Shown piece by piece: positions 29,277 to 56,196 of a DNA stretch of 58,232 nucleotides; within the stretch, counting starts at the first letter, position 1; every line of letters starts with the position of its first letter. The notes under the pieces are model-generated. The model saw nothing but the letters and a program-made list of their open reading frames with translations. It made no database searches and was not told the origin of the DNA. A program made the translations under genes and the position numbers. Location: NCBI GenBank assembly GCA_016183865.1, contig JACPDT010000081.1, positions 1 to 58,232 of the forward strand, given 5' to 3'. Source of the stretch: Armatimonadota bacterium. GTDB taxonomy: Bacteria; Vulcanimicrobiota; JACPDT01.

Positions 29277-29770
29277 TTTCTATGAAAAAATTCCTTAGGC
29301 CTCACAACCAGCGGTCTGATCACCAGATTGACCACGAGCGCCAACGCGGCATTCAAAGCGGCAAAGGGATAGAGCAGCTCCTTCCACGGCAACGGGTAAG
29401 GGGGCACATTCCCTGAAAAGGCCAGAAAATAGAAGACAACCTGCTCGAGAAAAGAAAAGGCATACACCGCCAGTGCGGGAATGAATACGGAATCGGGAGA
29501 GACCCGGGAAGGCACCACCCCTGCCAGGAACCCGACGGATGTCTTCACAAAAGCGAGGACCCCGGCGCTCCTCCCACTGGCGAAATCCTCCAGCACCCCT
29601 GCCAGGAAGCCAAAGGCGGTCCCAGTCTGCGAACCTTTCAGCAGAGCCACGCAGACGACCATCACCGTGATCAGCTCAGGCCTGTATCCCGCGGGAAGTA
29701 TTACAGGGAATACCGATGTCTGGAGAACCAGAAAAAGCAGGAGAATGATCGCCAGTTGGGCCGGTTTCAT
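29273..29770 (-). CDS. mreD: Rod shape-determining protein MreD
   Basis: I start it at ATG 29770 (MKPAQLAIILLLFLVLQTSVF...), which overlaps the mreC stop as ATGA. 165 aa, polytopic, in the right position after mreC. The track ORF extends further 5' inside mreC. Confidence 0.7.
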   Translation of the reverse strand: MKPAQLAIILLLFLVLQTSVFPVILPAGYRPELITVMVVCVALLKGSQTGTAFGFLAGVLEDFASGRSAGVLAFVKTSVGFLAGVVPSRVSPDSVFIPALAVYAFSFLEQVVFYFLAFSGNVPPYPLPWKELLYPFAALNAALALVVNLVIRPLVVRPKEFFHRN

Positions 29771-30570
29771 CGCTCCACCACGAGCACCGACTCGATTGCC
29801 GCAAAATCCACAAGGGGGCGAATCCTTGCCATCTTGAAGAGCACGTCCTCCTTCTTGATCACCGCCGAAACCCGTCCAATGGGCGTTCCTTTGGGGAAAA
29901 GCTCTCCCATGCCCGAGGAGACGATGGTGTCCTTTTCCTTGATCGGAGCATCGTGTGCAATATACTTCATGATGCACTGATCCCCTCCCTGGCCGAACAC
30001 GATTCCAAGAGTCCTTCCCTCTGCAATCTGTGCCGGAACGGCACTGTCGGGATCCAGAATGAGGAGCACCCGGGACACAAAGGGAGAGACCTGGAAAATA
30101 CGACCTACCAGACCACCGGGAGTCAGGACGATCATGTCCTTTGTGATTCCATGGCTGGACCCTTTGTCAATAAGCACTGTATGAAACCATCGAGTGGGAT
30201 CTCTGCCCACAACCTCGGCAGGGATCGTCTTCTTGGCAATCCTGCTTCGAAAAGTCAGGAGACTGCGCAGTCTCTCGTTTTCATAGCCCTGGTCCTTCAG
30301 CTTCTCGATCTCGGTCGCATACAGACTCAAACGAGCCTTGAGAGATTCGATGCTTTCGGAGTCCTCCCTCGGGAAAAGGTCTGAGAACAGTCCCGAAGCC
30401 CCCCTCGTGATCCATCCGAAGATCTTTTGGATCGGGGCCATCACCGTTTCCAGCGCACCTTCCACCGGATTCATGAGCTGGTTGGCCGTGACATGGACCT
30501 GCACAAAAACGAGAAAAGCGCTCAAGAAGAACAGGAGCACATACGTTTCCCAATGAACTCTAACAAACAT
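29767..30570 (-). CDS. mreC: Rod shape-determining protein MreC
   Basis: 267 aa. N-terminal TM, coiled-coil (LKARLSLYATEIEKLKDQGYENERLRSLL), C-terminal beta domains (VLTPGGLVGRIFQV, IVSSGMGELFPKGTPIGRV). Confidence 0.85.
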   Translation of the reverse strand: MFVRVHWETYVLLFFLSAFLVFVQVHVTANQLMNPVEGALETVMAPIQKIFGWITRGASGLFSDLFPREDSESIESLKARLSLYATEIEKLKDQGYENERLRSLLTFRSRIAKKTIPAEVVGRDPTRWFHTVLIDKGSSHGITKDMIVLTPGGLVGRIFQVSPFVSRVLLILDPDSAVPAQIAEGRTLGIVFGQGGDQCIMKYIAHDAPIKEKDTIVSSGMGELFPKGTPIGRVSAVIKKEDVLFKMARIRPLVDFAAIESVLVVER

Positions 30571-31309
30571 GGCTCTCCAGAAAATCAGGCCCCATCATTC
30601 TTTTCTCCATGCGACTCTCCAGGTGTATTCTCAAGGAGTTGCGCAACTGATCCTCTTCCACCAGGCCCAGGCGAAGACGACCGATCCTGGAGAAAGGGGT
30701 CTTTGCAAGAAAGTGTATGGCCTCAAGACTCGCTCTCCCCAGAAAAAGGGAACGGTCATCCCGGGACGCACATTTTGCGCATAAGAGCCCGCCCAGGGCC
30801 GGACTGAAATATCCCCCTCCGGAGATTCGCCGGCTTTCGAGGCAGGAAGCGCATCGGTGTAAGGCGGGAAAATACCCCAGGTGAAGGGACAGTTTCGCCT
30901 CAAAGGAGCGAAGACCCAGGAAGATCTCCCCTCCTTCGTCCAGGTGGGCCAGCCCGCCAAAGAGAAGTCTGTACAGGCCGCCATCGCCCCCCCCTTCTTC
31001 CGTAAAGTTATATATGAGCTCCAGAAGGTAGGAGGCGGCGGCAATTCTCGCAAGGTCTTCCCTGATGTGGGAGAAGCTCCTCCGAAGCTCAGCCTGGCTG
31101 ATCACATCCAGATTCCGTCCCTCTGCCACAAGCAGATTCACACAAGAGAAGGTCTCCAGCTTTCCGGAGAAGCGGCTGGTAAGTTTGCGCACCCCTTTTG
31201 CCGTTGCCCTGATCTTGCCTCTGCCTGGTGAAAAAAAGGTGACAATCCGATCCGATTCCCCCAGATCATTCCGCTTCATGACAATGGCAGAGGTCTTATA
31301 AAGCCCCAT
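30560..31309 (-). CDS. recO: DNA repair protein RecO
   Basis: 249 aa. TSAIVMKRNDLGESDRIVTFFSPGRGKIRATAKGVRK OB-fold N-terminus. Zn-finger-like CASC...C.KC. Confidence 0.8.
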   Translation of the reverse strand: MGLYKTSAIVMKRNDLGESDRIVTFFSPGRGKIRATAKGVRKLTSRFSGKLETFSCVNLLVAEGRNLDVISQAELRRSFSHIREDLARIAAASYLLELIYNFTEEGGGDGGLYRLLFGGLAHLDEGGEIFLGLRSFEAKLSLHLGYFPALHRCASCLESRRISGGGYFSPALGGLLCAKCASRDDRSLFLGRASLEAIHFLAKTPFSRIGRLRLGLVEEDQLRNSLRIHLESRMEKRMMGPDFLESHVC

Positions 31310-32268
31310 CAGTATTTTCCGGACATTTTTTCCGGCGGAGATTGTTTCATGATGGCAACACTCGCGCTCGCGCCGATACGGGTGGCCCCTGCCTGAATCA
31401 TCTTCTGGGCGGTCGCAAAGTCGCGGATACCGCCTGATGCCTTGACACCCATATATTTTCCAACGGTTTGCCGCATCAGAGAAACGTCATGGACAGTGGC
31501 CCCTCCCGGACCGAATCCTGTGGATGTTTTTACAAAATCGGCCCCTGCTTCCTTTGCCATCTGACAAGCCTTCACTTTCTCCTCATCCGAAAGAAGAGCA
31601 GTCTCCAGGATGACTTTCAGAATCTTGTCTCCACAGGCCTCTCGGACCGCCTCAATGTCCCGCTTTACCAGATCATGGTTCCCCGCTTTCAGCGCTCCGA
31701 TGTTGATCACCATGTCAATTTCCGTGGCCCCATTGGCAATGGCGTCCCGTGTTTCCATGGCTTTTGCCACCGTAGTAGTGGCGCCCAGGGGGAAGCCGAC
31801 CACGGTACAGACCTTTACAGGCGTACCCCTCAATATCTCCGCACACAGAGGCACATGGGACGGATTCACGCAAACAGAGGCAAAGCGATATTTCTTCGCC
31901 TCTTCACACAAGCGCACGATCTCTTCCCTTGTGGCATCGGGCTTCAACAGGGTATGATCAATCATGTCCGCCAATTGCTGATCCAGCTTGGGCAACCCCA
32001 GAGTCGCCCCAACCCGCTCCGCGCCGACAGAGATTACCTGCTCCACTTTGTCTTCGATCTTCAGAGGACAAAGTCCGCAAGAGTCGCATTCACCGGAAAG
32101 GGCTGCACATGGAGCAAACTGGACGGGCTCCAGAACATATCGCCTGGCGCCCTGGACCTCTCTTTTCACCGGGGCCGCAATGTCACCGCCCCGAATCTGA
32201 ACTCCCTGGGATTCCAACTGACGCACCACTTCCGATGTCACAGCCTCAACAAGGCGATTGAGATCCAT
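31309..32268 (-). CDS. deoC: Deoxyribose-phosphate aldolase (DERA) with a ~95-aa N-terminal extension (encapsulation-peptide-like helix plus Cys motif)
   Basis: Core: [52 protein letters not shown] (Schiff-base Lys region), VKASGGIR. Start chosen at ATG 32268 (GGAG 9 nt upstream); alternatives are ATG 32283 and TTG 32295. Confidence 0.85.
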
Positions 32269-32284
32269 GTACCTACGCTCCATT

Positions 32285-32560
32285 TCAGATTTCAAAATCT
32301 ATCCGGTCCACTACGCCGACTATCACGGCTTCGCACGGGTTTTTCTCATTCCGGAGCAGCATGCGCGCCGATCCGCCTTCATAAAGGACGAGCACCGTAT
32401 CTCCGATGCCTGAGTCCACAATGTCTACCGCAAGAATGGTAGTCTCCGTGAATCTCTTTTTCAACACGTCATAGGGCTCTACAAGCATGAGCTTGGACCC
32501 GCGGAAGTTCTCTTCCTTTATGGTTGCCACGATGTTTCCCACAACTCTTCCAAGGGTCAT
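32285..32560 (-). CDS. BMC vertex (pentamer) protein, EutN/CcmL family (BMC-P 3)
   Basis: [27 protein letters not shown]...[15 protein letters not shown]...[12 protein letters not shown] overlap with the upstream BMC-P. Confidence 0.85.
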
Positions 32561-32835
32561 GAGGGCGCTTGCTCCAGATTCATCGTATCCACGATCCCCA
32601 CGATACAGGCATCAATGGGGGCTCCAGGCACAGGCCAGGGAATGGAACCCTCCCTTCCCTTGACCAGATACACAAAATCGCCGTATCCGGCCTGTACCAC
32701 ATCCACAGCGACAAGTGGCTTGCCCTCTTTTTTTCTGAGATGCGTGTAGCTCTGGACAATCAGGAGCTTCGCCCCTTCCAATTTCTCGTCTTTTCTGGTG
32801 GCCACTACACGGCCTATCACTTTTCCCAAAAACAT
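32557..32835 (-). CDS. BMC vertex (pentamer) protein, EutN/CcmL family (BMC-P 2)
   Basis: Start at ATG 32835 (MFLGKVIGRVVATRKDEKLEGAKLLIV...), overlapping the rpiB stop as TGATG. The track ORF extends further 5'. Confidence 0.85.
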   Translation of the reverse strand: MFLGKVIGRVVATRKDEKLEGAKLLIVQSYTHLRKKEGKPLVAVDVVQAGYGDFVYLVKGREGSIPWPVPGAPIDACIVGIVDTMNLEQAPS

Positions 32836-33296
32836 CAGGAATCGCAACACTTGACAAATTTTTTCTCGATATCCATAATCTTCTGAACGCGCCTCGAGTG
32901 ATGGAACCCCAAAAACTTGCAGGAAAGCCACACCTTGACGATCTCTCTCGCAAGACCGACGCCGATGACCCTTCCTCCCATTGTCAGAACATTGGCATCA
33001 TTGTGCTCCCTGGAGTTCCGTGCACAGAAGAGATCATTGCACACGGCCGCACGGATGCCGGGCACCTTGTTGCACACCATGGCCGACCCGATTCCCGCGC
33101 CGTCAATCATGATTCCCACAGTGTTTTCCTGCTTTGCCACCGTGTCTGCGACAAGAAAGGCAAAGTCGGGGTAATCCACCGATTCCGATGAATAAGTGCC
33201 GTAGTCCACACAATCATAACCCAGTTCCCGAATATATGTCTTCAAATCCTCTTTGAGGGCAAAACCTCCGTGGTCGCCGGCAATGACAACTTTCAT
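32835..33296 (-). CDS. rpiB: Ribose-5-phosphate isomerase B (LacAB/RpiB family)
   Basis: MKVVIAGDHGGFALKEDL...DYG...VDYPDFA...GIMIDGAGIGSAMVCNKVPGIRAA...ARNSREHNDANVLTMG. Confidence 0.9.
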   Translation of the reverse strand: MKVVIAGDHGGFALKEDLKTYIRELGYDCVDYGTYSSESVDYPDFAFLVADTVAKQENTVGIMIDGAGIGSAMVCNKVPGIRAAVCNDLFCARNSREHNDANVLTMGGRVIGVGLAREIVKVWLSCKFLGFHHSRRVQKIMDIEKKFVKCCDS

Positions 33297-33301
33297 GACG
33301 A

Positions 33302-33601
33302 TTACACCCTGTAGCTTACGGCTTGCTCCGGCACAGGCAGGATCTTCTCAACCTCCTCGTGAGGCCTGGGGATCACATGAGCCGAAATGAGAGTTCCCAC
33401 CTTGCGGGCCGCCTGTGCGCCTGCATCCACGGCTGCCTTTACGGCGCCCACGTCCCCCCGAACCATCGCCGTCACCAGACCGGCTCCGATGCGGACTTCG
33501 CCGATCAAGACAACCTTGGCGGCTTTGGTCATGGCGTCTGCAGCCTCAATGACCCCCACCAATCCCTGAGTTTCGATCATGCCCAGCGCTTCCATTGACA
33601 T
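33302..33601 (-). CDS. BMC shell hexamer protein (BMC-H, PduA/EutM-like) 2
   Basis: [31 protein letters not shown]...[23 protein letters not shown]...AHVIPRPH is a canonical single BMC domain. Confidence 0.95.
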
Positions 33602-33617
33602 GTTTCACCGCTCCAGT

Positions 33618-35093
33618 CTAAATGATTCTGAAATAATCCACGAGGACGCACCTTCTCGTCCGGGTAAAATGACGAGCCGATGTGATCCCTTCCCCTGTAA
33701 GACAACCGATGGTCATGGTCGTGTTCCCCTCTCCCCCGTACCCGAGTCCTGAGTAGATGGGAGCATTTTTCACAAATATCGCCGTATCTATGCGGTGAGC
33801 CATATTGCTCAGGTTTTCCACATTTCTTGAATGCATGGAAGCCGAATGTCCGTTTCCCTTTTCCGCTTTCACGGCCAGATCCATGGCTTCCTGCACATTG
33901 CCGACACGGACGAGAGGGAGAACAGGCATCATCTGCTCCGTCATCACAAGAGGATGAGTCCGATCCACCTCAGAGATGAGAACTCTCACCGATGTGGGTA
34001 CATCGAGGCCGATGGCCCGTGCGAGAACCCTGGCATCTTTTCCGATGAAATCCCGATTCATGGTCGCTTCCGGACACCCCGCAGATCCCTCTTTTGTGAT
34101 CACTTTCAGGAGCTGCTCCAACTGGGAGGGGGAAAGCTCATAAGCTGAATAGGCGGTCATTTCTTTCTTGAGCTGATCGAAAACGGCGTCAACGGCAAAA
34201 ACTTCCTTCTCGCATTGACACATGATGTTATTGTCAAAGGACGACCCATCCACAATCGCCCTGGCAGCCTTGGGAATGTCGGCGGTCTCATCCACAACGG
34301 ATGGAGGGTTGCCGGGGCCCGCTGCAATCGTTCGCTTTCCCGATTGCATGGCCGCGCGAACAACGCCGGGCCCGCCGGTCACCACGAGTAAGCGGATCTT
34401 GGGATTGCGCATCGTCGCCTGACTGGTTTCAATGGTAGGCTCGGCGATGGAGGTGAGCAGATGAGAAGGGCCTCCCACTTTCCGTATTGCCTGGTTCAAG
34501 ATCTCAATCGCTCTCAAGCTCACTTTCTTCGCGCCGGGGTGAGGATTGAAAACAACGGCATTTCCCGAAGCGATCATCCCGATCGAGTTGTTTATGATGG
34601 TTGCCGCAGGATTCGTTGAAGGGGTGATGGAGCCGATGAGCTTGTAGGGCGCCATCTCAATGAGGGTCAAACCGCGGTCTCCCGTATGAGCCACAGATTC
34701 CAGGTCTTCTATCCCGGGGGTTTTGTCTGCTACCAGGTTGTTCTTTCGAATCTTGTCCTCCACGCGCCCGAGACCCGTCTCCTGGACGGCCATCTCCGCC
34801 AGCTCCCGGGCATGGGAGCGGGCCGTATCCCGCATGGCTTCAATGATCTCCTTTCTCTTTTCCAGAGTGAGGCGGGCCAACTCCTGATAGCTCCGTTCCG
34901 CGGCCTCAATGGCCCGCTCCTGGGTTGCAAAAATCCCTGATTCTTCATTCGCGGAAACTGCTGGTGCAAGGCTCTTCTCACCAAAAGGGGACGACTTGAG
35001 CGCCCCATCTCCGGTCGTCCCGGCGACTCTTCGCACCACTTCTTCCACGATTCTGCCGATTTCCGATCTATCCAGTTGCAACATCACTCGCAC
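33618..35093 (-). CDS. CoA-acylating aldehyde dehydrogenase (PduP/EutE-like) with an N-terminal encapsulation-peptide-like helix
   Basis: 491 aa. ITPSTNP, FNPHPGAKK, PGNPP and FDNNIMCQCEKE (catalytic Cys context) are typical of BMC aldehyde dehydrogenases. N-terminus is LDRSEIGRIVEEVVRRV. Start may be GTG 35093 or ATG 35084. Confidence 0.9.
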   Translation of the reverse strand: MRVMLQLDRSEIGRIVEEVVRRVAGTTGDGALKSSPFGEKSLAPAVSANEESGIFATQERAIEAAERSYQELARLTLEKRKEIIEAMRDTARSHARELAEMAVQETGLGRVEDKIRKNNLVADKTPGIEDLESVAHTGDRGLTLIEMAPYKLIGSITPSTNPAATIINNSIGMIASGNAVVFNPHPGAKKVSLRAIEILNQAIRKVGGPSHLLTSIAEPTIETSQATMRNPKIRLLVVTGGPGVVRAAMQSGKRTIAAGPGNPPSVVDETADIPKAARAIVDGSSFDNNIMCQCEKEVFAVDAVFDQLKKEMTAYSAYELSPSQLEQLLKVITKEGSAGCPEATMNRDFIGKDARVLARAIGLDVPTSVRVLISEVDRTHPLVMTEQMMPVLPLVRVGNVQEAMDLAVKAEKGNGHSASMHSRNVENLSNMAHRIDTAIFVKNAPIYSGLGYGGEGNTTMTIGCLTGEGITSARHFTRTRRCVLVDYFRII

Positions 35094-35108
35094 CGCCTGA
35101 CATTGGTG

Positions 35109-35414
35109 TTATTGCCCGTCCCTGTGTTTCTCAAATGTCAACATACCCTCTATCTCAATGGTGTCAATAATTCCCATGATCACGGCATCCACAGGGGTGT
35201 TCTGAGTCCGTGCCGTCAGCCTGGCGGAACTGCCGCTGACCACGAGAACCATCTCACCCTGGCCGGCGCCGATGCTGTCCACCGCCACCAGCGGCCTCCC
35301 GTCAGGCTGAAAAGTCTTGGTATCCATCGGAAGAACCAATTGGAGCTTGGCCCCTGTCAGCTTCTCATCCTTCTGGGTGCACACTATGGTCCCGATCACT
35401 TTGCAGATAATCAT
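35109..35414 (-). CDS. BMC vertex (pentamer) protein, EutN/CcmL family (BMC-P 1)
   Basis: MIICKVIGTIVCTQKDEKLTGAKLQLV...AVDSIGAGQGEMVLVVSGSSAR...AVIMGIID. Confidence 0.85.
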   Translation of the reverse strand: MIICKVIGTIVCTQKDEKLTGAKLQLVLPMDTKTFQPDGRPLVAVDSIGAGQGEMVLVVSGSSARLTARTQNTPVDAVIMGIIDTIEIEGMLTFEKHRDGQ

Positions 35415-35418
35415 GATC

Positions 35419-36249
35419 TCATTCCCTTACAAGATCCACTCCCACATCTCTCGCCGTCTCCTCTGCAAGAGAAGTGACGATCCCGTCAGGAGGGACCGTG
35501 ATTCGCCCGGCTCCCTCCTTCTTCTTCTCCAGGATGTCATCCCGGGTCAATATGAAGCGAAGGCCGGCCGGTCCACCTCCAACCTCCCCCCGTCCATCTC
35601 CAGCCTTCCCACTGAGGGGGGAGGTTGAGTGGGGGACCGAGGAAGGACCCGACAGCTCTCTTACCAGATCGGATCTGGAAAAAAGGGCAATCCCGAAGGA
35701 GCCGATCTTCTCCGAATATCCCCTTACAAGCTCCGAAAAAGAAGGATATGGCCCTTTCAAAAAGCGCTCAAAATCATCGGTAGCGGCGAGAATGCGCTTT
35801 TCTTGCTGGATGGCTTCCAGAATCCCACGGAGAAAGCCATTGTCGCAGAACAGGGATGCGAGCCTCGCCAGAGATGCCAGGGACAGATGAGGCAAGACAA
35901 TCACAGATGCCTTGTCCAGAAGATCGCCGGTTATGCGCTCCACGCTGGAGATCTTGTTCCAGGCGGCCAGGGCGGAATCATCGTGGATCTTGATCAGAGA
36001 ATTGTCGGGATCGAAAGGCTGTGCGTGGCAACAGCCGCCGCATTTTCCACGGGCCGGCATCACCACCTGAAATCTCTTCCCTTGGCTCTCCAGGACTTGC
36101 AGGGAGGAAAAAAAATCTCGGGAAATAGAATTCCCCTCCAAAAGAATGAGGGGAACCGGACCCGCCTCCCCTGGCGGCGCCTTCCCGCGCCTCTCAAGCT
36201 CCCGCAGAACCTCTTCCGTGATCTGCTTCACCAGGGCGTCAAAATCCAA
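35419..36249 (-). CDS. BMC-locus protein of unknown function (276 aa) with an N-terminal encapsulation-peptide-like helix; possibly PduM-like
   Basis: It sits between BMC-H 1 and BMC-P 1. N-terminus is MDFDALVKQITEEVLRELERRG. Central part: LPHLSLASLARLA...ILEAIQQEKRI. C-terminus: ILTRDDILE...ITVPPDGIVTSLAEETARDVGVDLV. The PduM resemblance is from memory and weak. Confidence 0.55.
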   Translation of the reverse strand: MDFDALVKQITEEVLRELERRGKAPPGEAGPVPLILLEGNSISRDFFSSLQVLESQGKRFQVVMPARGKCGGCCHAQPFDPDNSLIKIHDDSALAAWNKISSVERITGDLLDKASVIVLPHLSLASLARLASLFCDNGFLRGILEAIQQEKRILAATDDFERFLKGPYPSFSELVRGYSEKIGSFGIALFSRSDLVRELSGPSSVPHSTSPLSGKAGDGRGEVGGGPAGLRFILTRDDILEKKKEGAGRITVPPDGIVTSLAEETARDVGVDLVRE

Positions 36250-36265
36250 GGCGCGCTCCCTTTAC

Positions 36266-36571
36266 TTATTTCTTGTCTCCCGCCTTTTCGACAGGGGGTG
36301 CGATAGGCAGTACTTTGTCCAGGTCGGAATGAGGGCGAGGAATCACGTGAACCGCGATCAACTCTCCCACCTTGCGGGCTGCCGCCGCCCCTGCGTCCGT
36401 GGCGGCTCTTACGGCGGCCACATCGCCCCTGACCAGTGATGTGACGAGACCTGCTCCAATTTTCTCATACCCGATGAGTTTGACGTTAGCGGCTTTGACC
36501 ATGGCATCCGATGCCTCGACCATGGCGACAAGTCCGCGGGTCTCGATCATTCCCAGTGCTTCATAGTTCAT
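36266..36571 (-). CDS. BMC shell hexamer protein (BMC-H) 1
   Basis: Start at ATG 36571 ([34 protein letters not shown]...), preceded by GAGGAGGGAACCT. The track ORF runs further 5' into era. Confidence 0.95.
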
Positions 36572-36669
36572 AGGTTCCCTCCTCAATGGTTGCTCTTCAG
36601 GTACATCGTCCTGTCTTTCGATAGAGGGCGTTCTTTTCCCTTCTATTTTTGCCGCGGGAGTTGGCGCCA

Positions 36670-37563
36670 TTATCCGAGCCATCGCAGCACCTCTTCTCTC
36701 TCTCTCCACCCGGGCTTCACCTTTACCCAGAGGGAGAGAAAAACCTTTTCTCCAAGCCATTTCTCCAGATCTTTTCTCGCATGTTCTCCTATTCTCTTGA
36801 GCATCTCCCCCCCTTTTCCCACAAGAATCTTCTTTTGGGATTCCTTCTCCACATAGAGAATTGCCTCAATGTATCGAACCCCGGGGGTCTTCCCCTCCCT
36901 CATTTCCTCCACCTGAACGGCAACGGAGTGGGGAACCTCATCTCTTGTTGCATATAATACTTTTTCCCTTATGATCTCTCCCGCCCAGGAACGCTCATCC
37001 TGCTCCGTCTTCTGATCCAGGGGAAACAACGGCGGACCTGGAGGGAGAAGTTCCGTAACGATGTTGAGGACCCTATCCACGTTCTCTCCGGTCAATGCGG
37101 AAACGGGGATCAGCTCCCTGAAAGGCGCCTCCCTGTGCCAGGCATCCATGACAGGCAAGAGGAGACTCTTGTCTTTGAGCCGATCCACCTTGTTCAGGAG
37201 AAGGATCGCAGGAACCTCACGAATACGTGCCCGGGCAAAGTTCAGAAGAGCCAGGTCCTCATCGCCGGGTGGAGAGCCCGCCTCTGCCATCAGAATAAGT
37301 ACATCGGCATCCCTGATCCCTCCTTTCGCAAAGCTCAGCATTCGCCTGCCAAGGGCGTCGCGGGCCTTGCCGAAACCGGGGGTGTCCACAAAAACGGCCT
37401 GAGAGGAAGGAGTAGACAAAATGCCGAGAATCCTACGGCGGGTTGTCTGAGGTTTCGGGGAAACGATCGTGATCCTCTGTCCCATGATATGATTCACGAA
37501 AGTGGATTTTCCCACATTCGGCTTCCCCACAAGAGCGACAAAACCGGACCGGAAATCGCTCAC
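36670..37563 (-). CDS. era: GTPase Era
   Basis: [18 protein letters not shown] (G1), PQTTR, DTPG, NKVD, and a C-terminal KH domain ([22 protein letters not shown]). Confidence 0.95.
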
Positions 37564-38306
37564 TTTCCCTTGCGCCGGGCAAGCTCCTGGACGATGTATG
37601 AAGCCACCTGCTCAGGCACCGTACCTGCGCCGAAGCCCGCATCGTATCCCAGCTCCTTTGCGAGAGGATGGGTCAATCCTGGTCCCCCTGCAATCAGCAC
37701 GTATTTGGAGCGCTCACCGGAGGCATCCAGATAGTCCAGGAACCGGGACAAGGTGGCTCGATGAATGTCCTTTTGAGTCACCACCTGGGAAATGAGAAGG
37801 GCGTCAGGACATGACTGCCTGGCCTTTTCGACAAGGTCTGCAGGCGCGACCTGGGCCCCAAGATTGGATACCTCAAAATCGGGATAAGACTCCAGGCCCT
37901 TGTGGCCGGCATATCCTTTCATACTCAGAACGGCATCAATGCCCACCGTATGCGCATCCGTTCCGAGGCATGCGCCCATGACCCTGATTTTTCTTCCGAT
38001 TCTGGATCTCACAAACTCGCGAATCTCCTCATGACTCATGAGGACCACATCCAACTTGGAAACCTGCAATGAGGAGACGTCCAGGCTGTGTTTGGAGGCG
38101 CCATAGACAACAAGGAAAACAAACTCCCTCCCGAGACGTTTCGCAAAAACGACTCGCGGATTCTCAAGCCCCATCTTGAGGGCCAGCAGCCTCCCACCTT
38201 CCCTTGCCTGATCCACGTCATCCAGGGGGAGGGTAAAGCTGAGTTGGACCGCCCCATCCCCCATGGTATCTCCGTATGGTTTCACGCTCTTCAATCCGGC
38301 TCTCAT
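37560..38306 (-). CDS. kamE: Lysine-5,6-aminomutase beta subunit-like, B12-binding (KamE-like)
   Basis: 248 aa. KPYGDTMGDGAVQLSFTLP N-terminal domain. Rossmann B12-binding domain with GTDAHTVG (DxHxxG). ATGA overlaps on both sides. Confidence 0.75.
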   Translation of the reverse strand: MRAGLKSVKPYGDTMGDGAVQLSFTLPLDDVDQAREGGRLLALKMGLENPRVVFAKRLGREFVFLVVYGASKHSLDVSSLQVSKLDVVLMSHEEIREFVRSRIGRKIRVMGACLGTDAHTVGIDAVLSMKGYAGHKGLESYPDFEVSNLGAQVAPADLVEKARQSCPDALLISQVVTQKDIHRATLSRFLDYLDASGERSKYVLIAGGPGLTHPLAKELGYDAGFGAGTVPEQVASYIVQELARRKGK

Positions 38307-39880
38307 GCGAGGCTTGCCTCCGTTCTTGAGAAAGCCGCAACAAAGGGGTTGAGATACCTGGATGTCTTCACGAAGACTCCCTCCAGCCCTTTTCCTCCGA
38401 CCATGTTTCTGGATATCTCCGCGAAGGCGCCCTTCTCGATAGCTTTCATGAGGCCTGTCTGCCGGATTTCCCGCAAAAGCTCAACCGTGCTGTCCAGCAC
38501 TTCTTCGGCTCTTTTCACCATGCGCCCCGAAGGGTTGACAACGATTTCATCCCTGAGGTGTCGCGCACTATTAAAAATGTATCTGGCGTTTTCCAGGGCG
38601 AGATACCTGTCATGCATGAAAGGTGTGTGGAGGGCCTCAGTCAGAATGCCCACAAGATGAATGCTCTGCCCCGTCAGAATGGAAGTCATGTTGAACATGG
38701 CGTTCAGAAGGTGGCCCTTGAAAATATTGCCTGTCATATATTTTGTTGGAGGCATGTATTTGATCGGACATTGGGGAAAAATCTGGCGAACCAGCTCCGC
38801 CTGCGCAATCTCCCAGAGGAGTCCATCCTCAATGTCGGGATTCATCTCAAATGCGTGGCCCAGACCGATCCTCGCGGGCTTCATTCCCGCCCTCAGAGCG
38901 AACTGCTCGTTTATCAATTGGGAAGCGATCACCGTGTGACTCTGCTCATAGGCATCGGCCGTTGTCAGATAATTGTCTTCCCCTGTGTTGATGAACATAT
39001 CGGAAAAGGCAAGAATCATCCTGGAGAAATACTGGTCCACAAAAGTCCGCTGCATGTTGATGTCTCTGAACAGTATGCCGTACATGGAGTCATTGAGCAT
39101 CATGTCGAGGCGCTCCAATGCCCCGATCGCGGCTATTTCCGGCATGCACAACCCTGAGGAGTAGTTCACGAGACGAACATACCGGCCCGCCTCCTCTCCC
39201 GCCTCATCCATGGCCTGCCGCATGAGGCGGAAATTCTCCTGGGTGGCATAGGTACCGCCATAGCCTTCGGTGGTGCTTCCGTGGGGGACATAATCCATGA
39301 GGCTCTGGCCGGTGCTCCGAATCACTGCGATGCAATCGGCGCCCAGCATTACTGCGGACTTCGCCTGCACAATGTCTTCATGGATGTTTCCTGTGGCCAC
39401 AATCACATATAAGAGGGGCGAAGGACCCTCCCCGAGCCTTTTCAACATCGCCTCCCGTTCTCTACTGCGGCTTTCCAATGATTGGACCGCCTGCCGGATG
39501 TGGGGCGTCAGAGCTTCCTGAACCTCCGCCGCCTTTGGGGAAACTTCATTCCCCAGTTCTCTACGGCCGGCCACAACGGCTTCCGCAAGTTGCGGAACGG
39601 GTGCATCCTTTTCCAGAAGGGCTTGTCCGACCCAGTAAGCGACCCCATCTCCGAGAAGGTCCTTTTCCAGCAGTTTCTCGACAATAACATTCGCCCAGGG
39701 TTGTCCCTGGGGAGTGGCCTTATCCACACCCAGGAGACGCAGAATGGCCCGTTCCACACTCGCCGTGCTGCGGGCTTCTATGAAGGGAATCAGGGAATCC
39801 ACGATTCGAGCGGAAGAGTCCCTGGCCTCCTCAATTTTGGACTGGGAAAAGGGAAACAGCTTTTTCATAATAAGTGGCAA
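38303..39880 (-). CDS. kamD: Lysine-5,6-aminomutase alpha subunit-like (KamD-like)
   Basis: 525 aa TIM-barrel-size protein. STASVERAILRLLGVD N-terminal block and overall KamD size, paired with the KamE-like gene. Start is TTG 39880 or ATG 39868; no clear SD. Confidence 0.7.
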   Translation of the reverse strand: MPLIMKKLFPFSQSKIEEARDSSARIVDSLIPFIEARSTASVERAILRLLGVDKATPQGQPWANVIVEKLLEKDLLGDGVAYWVGQALLEKDAPVPQLAEAVVAGRRELGNEVSPKAAEVQEALTPHIRQAVQSLESRSREREAMLKRLGEGPSPLLYVIVATGNIHEDIVQAKSAVMLGADCIAVIRSTGQSLMDYVPHGSTTEGYGGTYATQENFRLMRQAMDEAGEEAGRYVRLVNYSSGLCMPEIAAIGALERLDMMLNDSMYGILFRDINMQRTFVDQYFSRMILAFSDMFINTGEDNYLTTADAYEQSHTVIASQLINEQFALRAGMKPARIGLGHAFEMNPDIEDGLLWEIAQAELVRQIFPQCPIKYMPPTKYMTGNIFKGHLLNAMFNMTSILTGQSIHLVGILTEALHTPFMHDRYLALENARYIFNSARHLRDEIVVNPSGRMVKRAEEVLDSTVELLREIRQTGLMKAIEKGAFAEISRNMVGGKGLEGVFVKTSRYLNPFVAAFSRTEASLA

Positions 39881-39914: not shown

Positions 39915-42701
39915 TTACCCTTCGGGAAATAGGAGAGAAACGGTCTTTCCGAGAGCCGTGCCGATGACCGGACAAAGGAGCATGGCGCCGGCAAGAGTCC
40001 CGAAGATCTCCCTCACATAAGGCCTGCCGGGGGCGCCCTTCATGGTCTCAATAGATTTGTGCTGCCTTTCCACATATCTTCCCATAAAACTCTCGAGGAG
40101 GGGGCTGGTCACTTCTCTTTGCTCAGGGATCTTGAAGTCGGCAGACCCGATGGCTCCATCCTCCATCAGATGGTAGCCCCTTTTCTCCAGGATTTCGCCA
40201 TACTTTCTCATAAGGAAATTCTCATCGCCCAGGATGGCGGAGGGATCGGAAAGCTCTATCCTCTTCCCCAGCATTCTTGCATTGAATTCGCTCAAAAGGC
40301 GATTCTGGGGCGGAAGAGGAACCATGGAGACACTGTCATCCTTACCGTCTTTCAACTGTTGAGCGAAATCTTTCCCGATCTTTTCTCTCAGCTTCCCGTC
40401 ATTCGTTTCCACCAGAACATCCAGGTCGGAATTCGCTCCCAATCTTCCCTTGGCAAAGCTTCCGATAATATACATCTTCATAGGATAACCCTTGGAATGG
40501 GAGAGAATGAATTTCACCTTTTCCGACAGCTCCGAGTTCAGGGCCTTGATGTGGCCGAAGACCTCTCCGTCGGTGAAAGGGCTTTTCAAATCTCTTTCAA
40601 GTTTGCCCTTCCATCTCTGGCGCTCCAGGCGGGAGAGGATTCCATCGGGATCCAGGGTGCTTTCTTTGCCGATCTCCTCCAGTGTTTTGCGGGAGGCGCC
40701 GTTAAAAAGATATGTGGCGATGTTTCCTTTCAGAAGATTGTGATCGGAATCGTTCAGATTCATCTTGCCCAGGATCCTCTCCGCGATCCGGCAGGCCAGC
40801 TCCCTTTCCGGAACATCCTCTTTCCCGGTTATCACGTATTTCCGGGACAGAATTTGTTTCAGGTCTTTCAGGACCTGAAGAATGCCGATCCTGGGCGTAG
40901 CCGGAACAGGGGCATCCATTGCGAGCCCCTCCTTCGGGCGGAAGCTCCTGGCCTCTGACACCTCCACATCCTTTACTTGCCAGTATTCCAGGAGCTTGTC
41001 AATCACATAGGGAAACGATCTGCGGTATTCCGCCTCATTCCACTCATTTTCTTTCATGTATTCGATGGTTTTCCCGCTCCCTGTTCCCGGGATGTCGGAA
41101 ACAAGGAGCGCTGTGGAAAGCTTCACATCCTGTCCTTTGGAGTTGGCCTGACATACCGCCTTTGCGATCTCCGCGGCCTCCACATCCACTGTTTCAAAGC
41201 CCCGGCTTTTCAGATTCTCCACCAGGTCCCGGGTCTCCATCAAAGGAGAAGACATCTTTGTATGGATGGTGGAGAAATGAATCAGGAGATCCTGATCCTC
41301 CCTTTCGACAGGCTCCGATGCGGCAAATTCCCCCAGACCGTTCGCGAGGCCGGGATTCGCCGCTCTTCCGTCCTTTCCGATGATAAGGGAAGGAAAGTAA
41401 AGCTCCCCGATCTTCGCGTCGGGCGTCAGAACTCCGGAATTCCCGATATGTACGATTTCCTTCGCACCGAAGGATATGGCCTTTTCGGCAACTTTCCCCG
41501 ACATGTCGCCATAAAGGAATCGTAGATTGAGAATCTTCTCCCTTTCCCCGTTCTCCTTGATCACGGTGAATATCTGGGAAGGGAGAAGAAGATCCGCCAC
41601 CGTTTCACCGGCATAGGTCTTTCCTGGTGATGCACCTTGAATCTTGAGACTCTCCCTGTCGAAAAGCTCGGAAATGATTTTCAAACAGGGGTTCTTGATG
41701 GAAAGATCCCTGAGGAATCCCTCGAACTCGGCCATTTTCGCCGTATTCAGGCCCTTTCTGAAGACATCTTCCCTTGAGGAGGAGAGGAGAGATTCATATT
41801 CCTTGCGGCTCTCCATGGCTGAAATCACGCTCTCTGCGGAGACCTTCTCCTCAGGGCTTGCCGCATCACGGGTTACCTGCTTGAGTTGCAGCATCATCCC
41901 TGAATAGGCATTGTCCCCGAACCTGGTTTTCAGAGCCTCCAGCTTGCGGCCATAGAGGGCTCTCCTGGTGAGCTCGGCCTTGAGGACTCCCCTGTAACCA
42001 ATGATGACTTTGGAAGGCATGGTTCCAACTTTCTTGAAGGCATTCTCAAGAAAGATGTCATAATCGGGATGATGGTCAAAAACGAGGACCTGCCCTGGAT
42101 CCACGCCCGACAGCCTCAACTGCAGTTGGTTATGGAGATTCATATCATCCCCCATGACCTGGGTAAGAGCATAGCGAATCTCTCCGGTCCGGGGCGAATG
42201 AGCGGAAAGAAGCAGATGCCCCCCCGCCGGAGCGCCTGATATCTCGGGAATCGAAACCATGCCGATACGGGTGAATCCCCTCTCATGAAGAGATTTCACA
42301 GCCTCAATATCGGTGCATCTGTGGATTTCAATCTTGCGATGGTGAGCCTTGGCGTCTTCCACAACCCACGAGGGGATGCGGGCAGCCAGATATTTCTCCA
42401 GATCATGTATGGAATGAGGCTGGTCTGTCGTTACTGACGCCACTTCGGGTGAATAGCCTTCCTGGACCGCGGGTTCTTTGGGTGTCCTGGCGCGGAAATC
42501 GAGGTTCAGCCTGGATAGAAGGGATTGCCCCCCATAAAGCACTCGTGCGCCCACGCTGAAGATTCTTGCTTCCCTGGAAGTGGAGGCTGCCCCTGCACGT
42601 GCGGAATCTTCGGCAACAGAAGGCGGGGGGTCCGCATTTTCCGAGCCTCGCGCCACCCTGGACCACAGGGAGCAGGGATTTCGCGGTTCAATAAGGTTCA
42701 C
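39915..42701 (-). CDS. Orphan 928-aa multidomain protein: unknown N-terminal region, nucleoside-phosphorylase (PNP/UDP)-like central domain, MNT-type nucleotidyltransferase motif, C-terminal TM helix
   Basis: PNP-like: FGAKEIVHIGNSGVL...GELYFPS and FETVDVEAAEIAKAV...TALLVSDIPG (compare the DeoD blocks RVGSCG and GVEMEAAGI...TVSDH). NTase: YIIGSFAKGRLGANSDLDVLVE. C-terminus: IFGTLAGAMLLCPVIGTALGKTVSLLF. Confidence 0.6.
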   Translation of the reverse strand: MNLIEPRNPCSLWSRVARGSENADPPPSVAEDSARAGAASTSREARIFSVGARVLYGGQSLLSRLNLDFRARTPKEPAVQEGYSPEVASVTTDQPHSIHDLEKYLAARIPSWVVEDAKAHHRKIEIHRCTDIEAVKSLHERGFTRIGMVSIPEISGAPAGGHLLLSAHSPRTGEIRYALTQVMGDDMNLHNQLQLRLSGVDPGQVLVFDHHPDYDIFLENAFKKVGTMPSKVIIGYRGVLKAELTRRALYGRKLEALKTRFGDNAYSGMMLQLKQVTRDAASPEEKVSAESVISAMESRKEYESLLSSSREDVFRKGLNTAKMAEFEGFLRDLSIKNPCLKIISELFDRESLKIQGASPGKTYAGETVADLLLPSQIFTVIKENGEREKILNLRFLYGDMSGKVAEKAISFGAKEIVHIGNSGVLTPDAKIGELYFPSLIIGKDGRAANPGLANGLGEFAASEPVEREDQDLLIHFSTIHTKMSSPLMETRDLVENLKSRGFETVDVEAAEIAKAVCQANSKGQDVKLSTALLVSDIPGTGSGKTIEYMKENEWNEAEYRRSFPYVIDKLLEYWQVKDVEVSEARSFRPKEGLAMDAPVPATPRIGILQVLKDLKQILSRKYVITGKEDVPERELACRIAERILGKMNLNDSDHNLLKGNIATYLFNGASRKTLEEIGKESTLDPDGILSRLERQRWKGKLERDLKSPFTDGEVFGHIKALNSELSEKVKFILSHSKGYPMKMYIIGSFAKGRLGANSDLDVLVETNDGKLREKIGKDFAQQLKDGKDDSVSMVPLPPQNRLLSEFNARMLGKRIELSDPSAILGDENFLMRKYGEILEKRGYHLMEDGAIGSADFKIPEQREVTSPLLESFMGRYVERQHKSIETMKGAPGRPYVREIFGTLAGAMLLCPVIGTALGKTVSLLFPEG

Positions 42702-55533: not shown

Positions 55534-56196
55534 ATGAAACTTTTCATTGACACGGCCATTTTTGATGAGATCAAGGAGGTCCACTCCTGGGGGATCCTGG
55601 CAGGGGTGACCACAAATCCGTCTCTCATGGCCGCATCGGGAAGGTCCTTCAAGGAAGTGATCCGGGATATCTGCGCACTGGTGAACGGGCCGGTAAGCGC
55701 CGAAGCAGTTACCCTGAACGCGGATGAGATGATAAAAGAGGCTCGGGAGCTGGCATCCTGGGCGCCCAATGTCATCGTAAAATTCCCGATTACCGCAGAC
55801 GGTCTGAAGGCCACATCCGTGGTTTCGAAGGAGGGAATCAAAGTCAACATGACCCTGATTTTTTCGGCCAACCAGGCGCTGCTCGCCGCCAGGGCCGGCG
55901 CTTCCTTTGTCAGCCCCTTCGTGGGAAGGGTGGATGATATCAATGGCGAAGGAATGAGTATGGTCAGGGAGATCTCCGAGGTCTTCCAGATTCACCGAAT
56001 TCAGACGGAAGTCATTGCCGCAAGTATCCGACACCCTTTGCACGTTACCCAGGCGGCTCTCGCAGGCGCGGATATCGCTACAATCCCTTATAAGGTGTTC
56101 AAACAGATGTTACATCACCCCCTTACCGACACAGGCATCACCCGTTTCCTTGAAGATTGGAAAAAAGTGCCCCAGGTTGCCAAGGTAAGAGCATAA
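55534..56196 (+). CDS. tal: Transaldolase / fructose-6-phosphate aldolase family (short, subfamily 3B)
   Basis: [37 protein letters not shown] (Schiff-base Lys), NMTLIFS, VSPFVGR. Confidence 0.85.

Follow-up and report, generated by a model that had tools for sequence, protein, structure and literature searches.

Among the sugar-phosphate-utilisation (SPU) types of bacterial microcompartment (BMC) locus, SPU6 of Chloroflexi is the only one studied experimentally (Dwyer, Sutter and Kerfeld 2024). Its DERA and RPI were expressed and assayed in 2024, and the formation of a DERA-RPI complex was shown (PMC11585597); the first-pass annotation of the DNA analysed here, which regarded the class as known from bioinformatics only, was out of date in this respect. 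The same paper reports that Cys66 is replaced by Asp in every SPU RPI. SPU4 occurs mostly in Bacillales and Clostridiales (Sutter et al. 2021, Supplementary Data 2). SPU1, SPU4, and SPU7 are the only published SPU subtypes in which PTAC is common, and ADH is confined to some SPU2, SPU4, and SPU6 loci. In Hodarchaeales, a flavoprotein-like domain is fused to the SPU DERA, and these loci have retained PTAC, citrate synthase, and an MNdh-Ts pair, which serve in cofactor handling (preprint PMC12747264). In the Salmonella Eut BMC, the N-terminus of EutQ joins shell and cargo (PMC12487888).

The DNA analysed here (the window, 58,232 nt) represents a single MAG contig in full. Using Pfam and NCBIfam, we confirmed nine co-oriented, tightly packed BMC genes at 31309-36571 on the minus strand between era and recO (Table 1). 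The earlier description of these genes as mostly overlapping was overstated: the gaps from BMC-H1 to DERA were 16, 4, 24, 16, 5, -1, -4, and 16 nt, and two of the eight internal junctions overlapped, namely the BMC-P2 ATG with the RpiB stop (1 nt) and BMC-P3 with BMC-P2 (4 nt). The locus lies within a co-oriented string of kamDE, era, the SPU genes, recO, and mreCD, with a 4-nt overlap between the kamE stop and the era start. In the era/BMC-H1 spacer, GAGGAGGG was found as the ribosome-binding site ahead of the BMC-H1 ATG; promoter and terminator signals in this spacer did not rise above chance, and an Rfam search of it returned no family. A longer BMC-H1 ORF reaching to 36760 was rejected, since it overlaps era and had no support from orthologues or a ribosome-binding site.

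Table 1 Features of the BMC locus and its flanks in the window.
Feature	Positions	Strand	Evidence and remarks
era (GTPase Era), upstream flank	36670-37563	minus	NCBIfam PRK00089, 345 bits; Pfam MMR_HSR1 + KH_2
era/BMC-H1 spacer	36572-36669	minus	98 nt; sole sizeable intergenic gap
BMC-H1	36266-36571	minus	PF00936, E 3e-29; 101 aa; pore motif KIGAG
276-aa ORF (U276)	35419-36249	minus	TIGR02536 eut_hyp, E 7e-9, below curated cutoff
BMC-P1	35109-35414	minus	PF03319, E 2e-31; pentamer vertex protein
AldDH	33618-35093	minus	NCBIfam PRK15398, 659 bits; PF00171; EutE-like, CoA-acylating
BMC-H2	33302-33601	minus	PF00936, E 1e-26
RpiB-like	32835-33296	minus	PF02502, E 7e-53
BMC-P2	32557-32835	minus	PF03319, E 3e-25, from residue 33 of long ORF
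BMC-P3	32285-32560	minus	PF03319, E 1e-21
DERA	31309-32268	minus	TIGR00126, 310 bits; 319 aa, short form
recO, downstream flank	30560-31309	minus	Pfam RecO_N + RecO_C
mreC	29767-30570	minus	MreC match; 11-nt overlap with recO

The SPU assignment made earlier was borne out: the locus encodes a DERA extended at its N-terminus, along with AldDH, an RpiB-like protein, and three BMC-P proteins. The DERA N-terminal helix, the Asp at the Cys66 position of RpiB, and a BMC-P triplet with an adjacent pair (BMC-P1 alone, BMC-P2 and BMC-P3 together) are published SPU hallmarks. With SPU4, the window locus shares the gene order eut_hyp, BMC-P, AldDH, BMC-H, RpiB, BMC-P, BMC-P, DERA, two similar BMC-H proteins (69% identical in the window), the BMC-P triplet, the lack of a consistent BMC-T, a eut_hyp/flavoprotein-like protein whose N-terminus carries an encapsulation peptide, and encapsulation peptides on AldDH and DERA. 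A locus of Paenibacillus alba (L042; PTAC, eut_hyp, P, AldDH, H, RpiB, P, H, P, DERA) fits the SPU4 description. However, PTAC and triosephosphate isomerase (TPI), which are typical of SPU4, are absent from the window, the SPU4 hosts are Firmicutes whereas the window lineage is labelled Armatimonadota or Eremiobacterota, and the window locus is embedded upstream of recO. SPU6 shares the DERA extension, AldDH, the BMC-P triplet, the Cys66-to-Asp RPI, and the general absence of PTAC. It differs from the window in that a BMC-Tdp is present, AldDH carries its encapsulation peptide at the C-terminus, RPI bears one as well, a ~130-aa EutQ-like protein stands in place of a full eut_hyp protein, and the genes run RpiB, DERA, P, AldDH, H ... 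P, P. We consider that the locus is probably a vertically inherited, reduced SPU4-like metabolosome locus in a long co-oriented gene string.

Backbone order and the recO neighbour are shared by L085 and L086 ('Armatimonadota' MAGs), L090 ('Eremiobacteraeota' MAG), L089, L091, and L017 (a Vulcanimicrobiota MAG); the labels of the relatives (Armatimonadota, Eremiobacterota/Vulcanimicrobiota, 'Chloroflexi') are the submitters' own. In L017 the order is era, H, U276, P, AldDH, RpiB, P, P, DERA, recO, with a protein identity of ~50% to the window (era 49%, AldDH 52%, BMC-H 86%). AldDH was 52-64% identical to those of the six relatives. In most of the recO-linked relative loci, DERA is long and fused to a flavoprotein-like domain, as in Hodarchaeales. 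It is short in the window and L017, and the flavoprotein-like protein of the window is separate.

By annotation from the genes, BMC-H1 is predicted to be the major hexamer shell protein. Its identity to the first BMC-H was 84-90% in L017, L085, L089, and L090; comparison with L086 and L091 gave 63-70%. BMC-H2 was 80% identical to the L091 BMC-H and 65% identical to the L086 BMC-H that follows BMC-T. The BMC-P2 start agreed with that of the L085 orthologue (MFLGKVIG).

The AldDH N-terminus MLQLDRSEIGRIVEEVVRRVAG forms an encapsulation-peptide-like helix, its likely start being the ATG at 35084, and its catalytic-Cys context FDNNIMC aligned with FDNNIGC of L085. The RpiB-like protein has no encapsulation peptide, and its IMIDGAG aligned with ILICGTG of E. 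coli. In DERA, an encapsulation-peptide helix (residues 1-22; 32203-32268) is followed by the Cys motif C54-x6-C61-x2-C64-x2-C67-P (32065-32109), kept in 100 of 116 homologues, and by the catalytic TIM barrel from near residue 98. The AF2 model showed the N-terminal helix and a high-confidence barrel. Residues at the catalytic positions were invariant across alignment A2, namely D194, K227, and K256 (in the 328-aa ORF numbering used in A2) in the motifs EIDMV, KVILE, and VKTST; presumably these correspond to E. coli D102, K167, and K201. The DERA enzyme is thus intact.

From these identities we infer encapsulation and a pathway flux as follows. The shell would be built from two BMC-H and three BMC-P proteins without trimers, and a similar N-terminal amphipathic helix on DERA, AldDH, and U276 would target them to the lumen. 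The RpiB-like protein, having lost the catalytic Cys, probably enters as a partner of DERA. Inside the shell, DERA would convert deoxyribose 5-phosphate into glyceraldehyde 3-phosphate plus acetaldehyde, and AldDH would convert acetaldehyde, CoA, and NAD+ to acetyl-CoA and NADH. Since no gene for CoA or NAD+ regeneration lies in cis, the cofactors would either pass through the shell or depend for their recycling on proteins whose genes lie at other genomic sites.

The absence of these partners from the 58-kb contig, as noted in the first-pass annotation, was verified. Pfam scans of the ~50 ORFs of the whole contig found no PTAC (PduL), Pta, acetate kinase, ADH, TPI, or extra BMC domains; BMC-T and PduS were also missing from the results of a six-frame phmmer search with PTAC, PduS, BMC-T, BMC-H, and BMC-P seeds, which recovered only the genes already listed. 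These absences had been regarded as unusual. However, the lack of PTAC and ADH is not unusual by itself, since several SPU subtypes normally do without one or the other. A missing BMC-T is typical of SPU4, and the window locus is collinear with that subtype. What stands of the idea of an incomplete locus is the comparison with syntenic relatives. PTAC was found at the 5' end of the locus in L085, L089, and L090, and PduS with BMC-Ts between AldDH and RpiB, the position of BMC-H2, in L085, L086, and L090, whereas both L017 and the window are without PTAC and the PduS-BMC-T pair. Since several relatives have PTAC and three have PduS-BMC-T, the window locus appears to be a reduced variant of the ancestral locus, although the relatives could instead have gained these genes.

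The minimal appearance may also be an artefact of one contig. Tentatively, the organelle could be complete if satellite loci on other contigs encoded an encapsulated PTAC, a PduS (MNdh)/BMC-Ts pair, more shell proteins, and perhaps an ADH. Such loci are on record for several SPU subtypes, the window is a single MAG contig, and an arrangement with satellites is seen in this clade, as in relatives BMC-P is missing within 10 kb of the main locus (L089, L090) or BMC-H within 10 kb (L001-L004, L087). However, L017 has the same compact set within the 20.9 kb of its sequence that were covered, and satellite loci are generally absent in SPU4. Furthermore, the PTAC and PduS-T genes of the relatives occupy fixed positions inside the main locus, and these positions are closed up in the window with 16-nt gaps. 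We favour the reduced SPU4-like locus.

The 276-aa protein, previously called unknown, gave no match in a Pfam search and corresponds to the eut_hyp/flavoprotein-like protein with an encapsulation peptide known from SPU4. It consists of an encapsulation-peptide helix (residues 1-22; 36184-36249), a Rossmann-like domain (residues 32-200; 35650-36156), and a motif like the EutQ N-terminus (residues 229-276; 35422-35565). We found 34 distant homologues, and orthologues occupy the same position in L017, L085, L089, L090, L091, and L042. TIGR02536 matched 23 of the 25 aligned family members, the window protein included (alignment A1). The AF2 model (pLDDT 79.7) resembled UbiX/CoaC/EpiD (Foldseek, E 1e-5), and the U276 profile matched CoaBC among PDB sequences (2e-4). 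Sequence and model suggest that U276 is an HFCD-flavoprotein-like protein.

The C-terminal motif of the family (~45 residues, xVxTxxDxxxAxxxG...IVTPLAxExAxxxGIEI) aligned in the orthologues to EutQ profile positions 2-48, the reported shell-binding region of EutQ (PMC12487888); the window's own motif matched weakly, with E 0.003 to the TIGR02536 tail and no direct EutQ match. The EutQ linker and PduM are among the nearest known counterparts. The motif is N-terminal in EutQ and C-terminal in U276, which has no cupin or acetate-kinase domain. Because U276 combines an N-terminal encapsulation helix with this EutQ-like motif, it is probably a cargo-shell linker, with the motif tying the cargo core to the shell.

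It seems unlikely that U276 is instead a working flavoprotein that reoxidises NADH inside the shell, as an NAD+ recycler in place of PduS or ADH, possibly with an electron route through the DERA Cys motif. The HFCD/UbiX-like fold, the PF02441 matches of seven of the 25 A1 members, the conserved CX6CX2CX2CP motif, and the flavoprotein-like domain fused to DERA in many SPU loci and Hodarchaeales are in its favour. However, L085 and L090 encode both a U276 orthologue and PduS; therefore, U276 is no substitute for PduS. Moreover, U276 has LPHLSLAS in place of the HFCD 'PASANT'-type motif, its N-terminal glycine-rich loop is degenerate, and the AF2 confidence for the DERA Cys-motif region was only moderate. 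HFCD enzymes are not known to act as NADH oxidases.

Locus reduction does occur within this clade, as the interior of the locus is deleted entirely in L039, which agrees with the favoured reading of a reduced locus. This loss, together with the PTAC and PduS-T genes present in relatives and absent from the window, would also fit a locus in decay whose products no longer form a working compartment. We regard this as very improbable. All nine ORFs are intact, residues at catalytic positions and encapsulation helices are conserved, and the gene spacing still fits translational coupling. The reduced set is maintained in L017 at ~50% identity, which implies long purifying selection.

Finally, the first-pass annotation had viewed the locus as a mobile cassette recently put into an existing era-recO operon. 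The era-recO interval in relatives had been set beforehand as the refuting comparison, and the identical order was found in L017. The SPU locus was directly upstream of recO in seven relatives (L017, L085, L086, L087, L089, L090, and L091), with a recO identity of only 27-43% across these loci. Because this adjacency recurs in seven divergent relatives, the position is considered old and inherited, and the ancestral locus of the clade would already have been upstream of recO; 'vertical' is used here on the grounds of synteny and because locus and flanks have diverged to a comparable degree. Recent insertion is hence scarcely credible, even though many bacteria, including L079, have era immediately next to recO, and the core module (P, AldDH, RpiB, P, P, DERA) lies away from recO in L001-L004 and can therefore move or duplicate: the locus and its flanks have equal G+C content with no compositional break, 1 nt is shared by the DERA stop and the recO start, and the borders carry no integrase, transposase, or repeat. 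The sole tRNA gene of the contig is located ~10 kb from the locus.

The genes of the locus were identified by Pfam and NCBIfam family scans. These scans confirmed the central reading of the first-pass annotation, namely an SPU (sugar phosphate utilisation) type microcompartment locus of nine co-oriented genes at 31309-36571, between era and recO. Its shell genes comprise two BMC-H (PF00936), whose products are 69% identical, and three BMC-P (PF03319), the second and third adjacent and the first apart. Neighbouring genes inside the locus lie between -4 and +24 nt apart. The last of them, DERA, runs 1 nt into the start of recO, which in turn shares 11 nt with mreC; the sole real gap was the 98 nt from era to BMC-H1. 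The G+C content of the locus equalled that of its flanks. A promoter/terminator scan of the locus gave nothing above shuffled expectation, and an Rfam scan found no riboswitch or other RNA near it. At its start, era overlaps the end of a lysine 5,6-aminomutase pair, and it appears to be translationally coupled to this amino-acid fermentation gene pair instead of rnc or ybeY. The aminomutase genes lie directly 5' of era with 4-nt overlaps, and just upstream of them is a 928-aa ORF in the same orientation, with weak matches only.

Features of the window with their coordinates and identifying matches
Feature	Position	Strand	Match or remark
recO	30560-31309	minus	immediate downstream flank
DERA	31309-32268	minus	TIGR00126, 310 bits
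Cys motif in DERA extension	32065-32109	minus	C-x6-C-x2-C-x2-C-P, residues 54-68 of 319-aa form
BMC-P3	32285-32560	minus	PF03319
BMC-P2	32557-32835	minus	PF03319
RpiB-family protein	32835-33296	minus	PF02502, E 7e-53
BMC-H2	33302-33601	minus	PF00936
EutE-like acylating aldehyde dehydrogenase (AldDH)	33618-35093	minus	PRK15398, 659 bits
BMC-P1	35109-35414	minus	PF03319
276-aa ORF (U276)	35419-36249	minus	no Pfam match
BMC-H1	36266-36571	minus	PF00936, E 3e-29
era	36670-37563	minus	immediate upstream flank
Lysine 5,6-aminomutase alpha/beta pair	37560-39880	minus	PF09043; OAM_dimer and B12-binding
928-aa ORF	39915-42701	minus	weak: PNP_UDP_1 (nucleoside-phosphorylase superfamily), nucleotidyltransferase
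Transaldolase / fructose-6-phosphate aldolase family gene	55534-56196	plus	PF00923, E 2e-59

The SPU class had been regarded as known from bioinformatics only; this no longer holds, since Dwyer, Sutter and Kerfeld (2024; PMC11585597) purified the SPU6 DERA and RPI (RpiB) and found an active DERA, a DERA-RPI complex and an RPI activity of almost nil. They set up seven subtypes: phosphotransacylase (PTAC) is a common component of SPU1, SPU4 and SPU7 alone, ADH is found in a subset of SPU2, SPU4 and SPU6 loci, PduS in every subtype except SPU6, and at least one BMC-Ts is given for all. All SPU RPIs carry Asp in place of Cys66, and all SPU DERAs an N-terminal extension with an amphipathic helix (PMC11585597). 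According to Sutter et al. 2021 (Supplementary Data 2), SPU4 has AldDH, RPI, DERA, PTAC and TPI as well as an eut_hyp (TIGR02536)/PF02441-related protein bearing an encapsulation peptide at its N-terminus, and is without a consistent BMC-T (Sutter 2021).

The window locus has BMC-H and BMC-P genes including the BMC-P triplet, DERA (PF01791) with the extension, AldDH (PF00171) and RpiB (PF02502) with the Asp. It shares with SPU4 the eut_hyp-type protein with an N-terminal encapsulation peptide, two similar BMC-H and a main locus without BMC-T. Absent from the contig were BMC-Ts (no tandem BMC-domain protein in any frame), PTAC (PF06130) and TPI (triosephosphate isomerase; PF00121 unmatched among the contig ORFs). 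About 50 ORFs spanning the entire 58,232-bp contig, from a MAG labelled 'Armatimonadetes bacterium', were scanned with Pfam and yielded no PTAC, Pta, acetate kinase, alcohol dehydrogenase, TPI or PduS and no additional BMC domain, and a six-frame phmmer scan of the contig had the same outcome; at the scope of the contig, the earlier statement that PduL/Pta, acetate kinase, ADH and BMC-T are missing from the 58 kb was thus borne out. Compared with the SPU4 locus of Paenibacillus alba, the window is collinear but lacks PTAC and TPI. Judged from its sequence, the locus truly belongs to the SPU type and represents a reduced, SPU4-like variant from a lineage that has received little study. The set that it shares with L017, a locus in a Vulcanimicrobiota MAG, matches no published subtype description exactly, being SPU4-like minus PTAC and TPI.

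Residues D194, K227 and K256 of DERA (numbered on the 328-aa ORF) were invariant in the DERA alignment, and the catalytic positions are intact as read from it. The window RpiB has Asp at the Cys66 position, with IMIDGAG against ILICGTG of E. coli. The N-terminal extension of DERA with its helix was seen in the sequence and predicted by AF2, and AldDH begins with a helix-like stretch similar to the N-termini of DERA and U276, a candidate encapsulation peptide. DERA is of a short form in the window and L017; many SPU DERAs are 450-550 aa long, with a flavoprotein-like domain as in U276 that follows the encapsulation helix and precedes the catalytic barrel, and a similar Flav+DERA fusion has been noted in Hodarchaeales (PMC12747264). 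The extension also holds a Cys motif that is a possible metal or Fe-S site. Among 116 SPU-type DERA homologues with the extension, CxxCxxC was found in 100 and the fourth Cys in 99, and the remaining ones had the variant C..GEC(G/A)GLG(H/K)C in its place. AF2 confidence in this region was only moderate, and metal binding cannot be judged from the model. A discussion of the motif was not found in the text of the SPU paper from 2024 (PMC11585597).

Genomic contexts were collected from DERA homologues and from recO homologues.

Gene orders of related loci (H, P and T, BMC-H, BMC-P and BMC-T shell genes)
Locus	Source	Gene order
L017	Vulcanimicrobiota MAG	era, H, U276, P, AldDH, RpiB, P, P, short DERA, recO, ruvX
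L085	'Armatimonadota' MAG	PTAC, H, U276, P, AldDH, PduS, T, RpiB, P, P, (PMT_2), long DERA, recO, ruvX
L086	'Armatimonadetes' MAG	...AldDH, PduS, (PMT_2 x2), T, H, RpiB, P, P, (TPR gene, opposite strand), long DERA, recO, ruvX
L087	metagenome contig	P, AldDH, RpiB, P, P, short DERA, (opposite-strand gene), recO, mreC
L089	MAG labelled Chloroflexi	PTAC, H, U276, AldDH, H, RpiB, long DERA, recO
L090	'Eremiobacteraeota' MAG	PTAC, H, U276, AldDH, PduS, T, H, RpiB, long DERA, recO, ruvX
L091	nearest recO, 41%	...U276, P, AldDH, 137-aa ORF, H, RpiB, (insert), P, P, long DERA, 145-aa ORF, recO, (opposite-strand gene), mreC, mreD, PBP2
L042	Paenibacillus alba SPU4 locus	PTAC, eut_hyp, P, AldDH, H, RpiB, P, H, P, DERA

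In this clade, modules of the SPU locus are present or absent at a fixed chromosomal site beside recO: PTAC at the 5' end (L085, L089, L090) and a PduS-BMC-Ts pair in the middle, between AldDH and RpiB (L085, L086, L090). The main loci of L089 and L090 are without BMC-P genes. Both PTAC and PduS-T are missing from the window and from L017, and in both of these era occupies the place of PTAC. The claim that the locus lacks its recycling partners stands for the contig and as a real difference from the relatives bearing PTAC or PduS-T, and for that part only. The partner genes may quite possibly, if short of probably, lie in satellite loci elsewhere in the MAG; relatives clearly keep shell genes apart from the main locus (L001-L004, L087, L089 and L090).

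L001-L004 and L087 are the closest short-form DERA homologues, with no BMC-H or U276 homologue within 10 kb. L087 has another DERA paralogue some 7 kb upstream, and it shares its source metagenome sample with L002. Since the P, AldDH, RpiB, P, P, DERA module lies in a context other than recO in L001-L004, the module can move or duplicate. In one relative, modular evolution seems to have gone as far as deletion of the whole interior. A single 422-aa ORF of rumen MAG RUG13580 (L039, CADASF010000015.1, 9386-10654) fuses PTAC (PF06130, residues 7-182) through the linker SDCCCCCSKKK to the bare catalytic domain of a DERA (PF01791, residues 207-413). Both of its flanks show synteny with L090 (54% identity for the HEAT-repeat gene, 72% for the PRK-family (PF00485) gene), where PTAC is the first and DERA the last gene of a full SPU locus. 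It looks as if an in-frame deletion had removed the entire shell and AldDH interior.

We also attempted to assign the 276-aa protein. Because a word-indexed homology search returned only U276 itself, an exhaustive HMMER search was needed, and it recovered 34 distant homologues, mostly of 235-281 aa and many aligned end to end. An alignment of 25 sequences, window U276 included, had three parts: an amphipathic helix at the N-terminus, a central domain with the signature VVLPxLxxxxLAKxAxLxxD, and a C-terminal motif of about 45 residues, RxVxTxxDxxxAxxxGxxxI...IVTPLAxExAxxxGIEI. TIGR02536 was matched by 23 of the 25, PF02441 by seven, and PduM or EutQ by a few. The AF2 model (mean pLDDT 79.7) consisted of a helix (3-22), a Rossmann-like domain (32-200), a disordered linker (204-228) and a small C-terminal unit. 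Foldseek matched the central domain to UbiX, CoaC and EpiD (E 1e-5, target-normalised TM 0.48-0.65), and a profile search matched CoaBC among PDB sequences (E 2e-4). The central domain is predicted to have the Rossmann-like HFCD fold of the PF02441 flavoproteins. At the FMN-binding positions of that fold (the N-terminal G-S/T-G-S loop and PxS/TxNT), window U276 reads LEGNS and LPHLSLAS; on sequence alone, flavin binding looks doubtful because these contact motifs are not conserved. The degenerate motifs and the presence of U276 together with PduS in relatives make it improbable that U276 is itself an internal redox recycler replacing the missing partners.

The C-terminal motif of U276 orthologues aligns with positions 2-48 of the EutQ profile. 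Against the first ~48 residues of EutQ, orthologues scored E 4e-4 (u245 of L085) and 0.011 (P0122); the tail of window U276 gave a weak match, only to the equivalent TIGR02536 tail (E 0.003). In the EutQ N-terminus, helices H1/H2 hold the shell and H3/H4 hold cargo encapsulation peptides (PMC12487888). These likenesses suggest that U276 is a cargo-shell linker, modestly so for the window's own copy. This would give a testable role to the uncharacterised eut_hyp family, which recurs in EUT2 and SPU loci. The idea that U276 is an N-terminal domain split off from the long DERAs was dropped because L085 and L090 carry a stand-alone orthologue plus a long DERA. The EutQ-N-terminus-like motif of about 45 residues also stands alone at the N-terminus of proteins of about 120-150 aa in many SPU6 loci, encoded by small ORFs about 4 kb downstream of DERA (L052, L025, L030, L015, L051, L032 and other Chloroflexi SPU6 loci). 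They fit the '~130 aa EutQ-like protein' of Sutter et al. 2021, and the motif may be a general shell-binding module of SPU compartments.

The locus had been seen as a cassette dropped into a housekeeping operon. Comparison of the era-recO interval told otherwise: SPU genes lie beside recO in L017, L085, L086, L087, L089, L090 and L091, and L017 has the same era-SPU-recO order. Such conservation is what the first-pass annotation had named as speaking against recent insertion. The recO proteins of relatives are only 33-43% identical to that of the window where detectable, and L017 recO matched only that of L085, at 27%; the locus proteins of relatives are 42-90% identical to those of the window. 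For L017, era is 49%, BMC-H 86% and AldDH 52% identical, and its U276 homologue scored E 3e-31 against the family HMM. Since recO has diverged so far and yet retains its SPU neighbour, the linkage is, from these comparisons, old, and the locus is stably resident upstream of recO. The closest recO among 5.8 billion protein clusters was only 41% identical, and no close genome with an 'empty' era-recO site was found; recO loci without SPU (L092, L093) were too distant to inform. When BMC-H1 was used to scan metagenomes, the loci recovered were mostly H-P-P-P loci belonging to other BMC types, with no additional era-SPU locus among them. Decay of the locus into a relic is very unlikely, given intact ORFs and the same gene set in L017. 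Recent insertion, contradicted by the conserved synteny, is about as unlikely.

What was observed directly are the gene identities, the intact catalytic positions, the conserved synteny and the similarities of fold; from knowledge of the families we propose the following working scheme. BMC-H1, BMC-H2 and the three BMC-P proteins would build the shell; shells of hexamers and pentamers only are known in synthetic systems. Similar N-terminal helices would target DERA, AldDH and U276, the RPI-like protein would be carried along with DERA, and U276 would tie the core to the shell. Because no PTAC, ADH or PduS is encoded in cis, CoA and NAD+ must either be exchanged across the shell or be recycled by the products of unseen genes.

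Private cofactor pools recycled by PTAC, ADH or PduS count as a design rule for aldehyde-processing microcompartments. Here, an intact SPU locus without recycling modules or trimers has been kept in two deeply diverged lineages, those of the window and L017. If there are no satellite genes, it would offer a natural test of the cofactor-pool rule and a small nine-gene engineering template. It is rather unlikely that the locus encodes a naturally minimal metabolosome, of two hexamers, three pentamers, DERA, AldDH, an RPI that looks inactive and a single linker, long-lived without a CoA/NAD+ recycling module or trimer gate. If so, either the hexamer/pentamer-only shell passes NAD(H) and (acetyl-)CoA, or HFCD-like U276 and the DERA Cys4 motif form a previously unrecognised internal redox module. 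Fixed co-transcription with recO, if true, would tie deoxyribose salvage to a housekeeping operon.

The contig also carries a transaldolase-family gene unlinked to the SPU locus, whose possible substrates could be sugar phosphates downstream of glyceraldehyde 3-phosphate. In Bacillaceae and relatives (L079, L053, L078), the region phoH, ybeY ... era, recO is preceded, at a distance of a few kb, by an ordinary deoC with no BMC genes, and in L092 a cytidine deaminase gene immediately precedes recO. Nucleoside-catabolism genes near era and recO may be an old feature predating the microcompartment.
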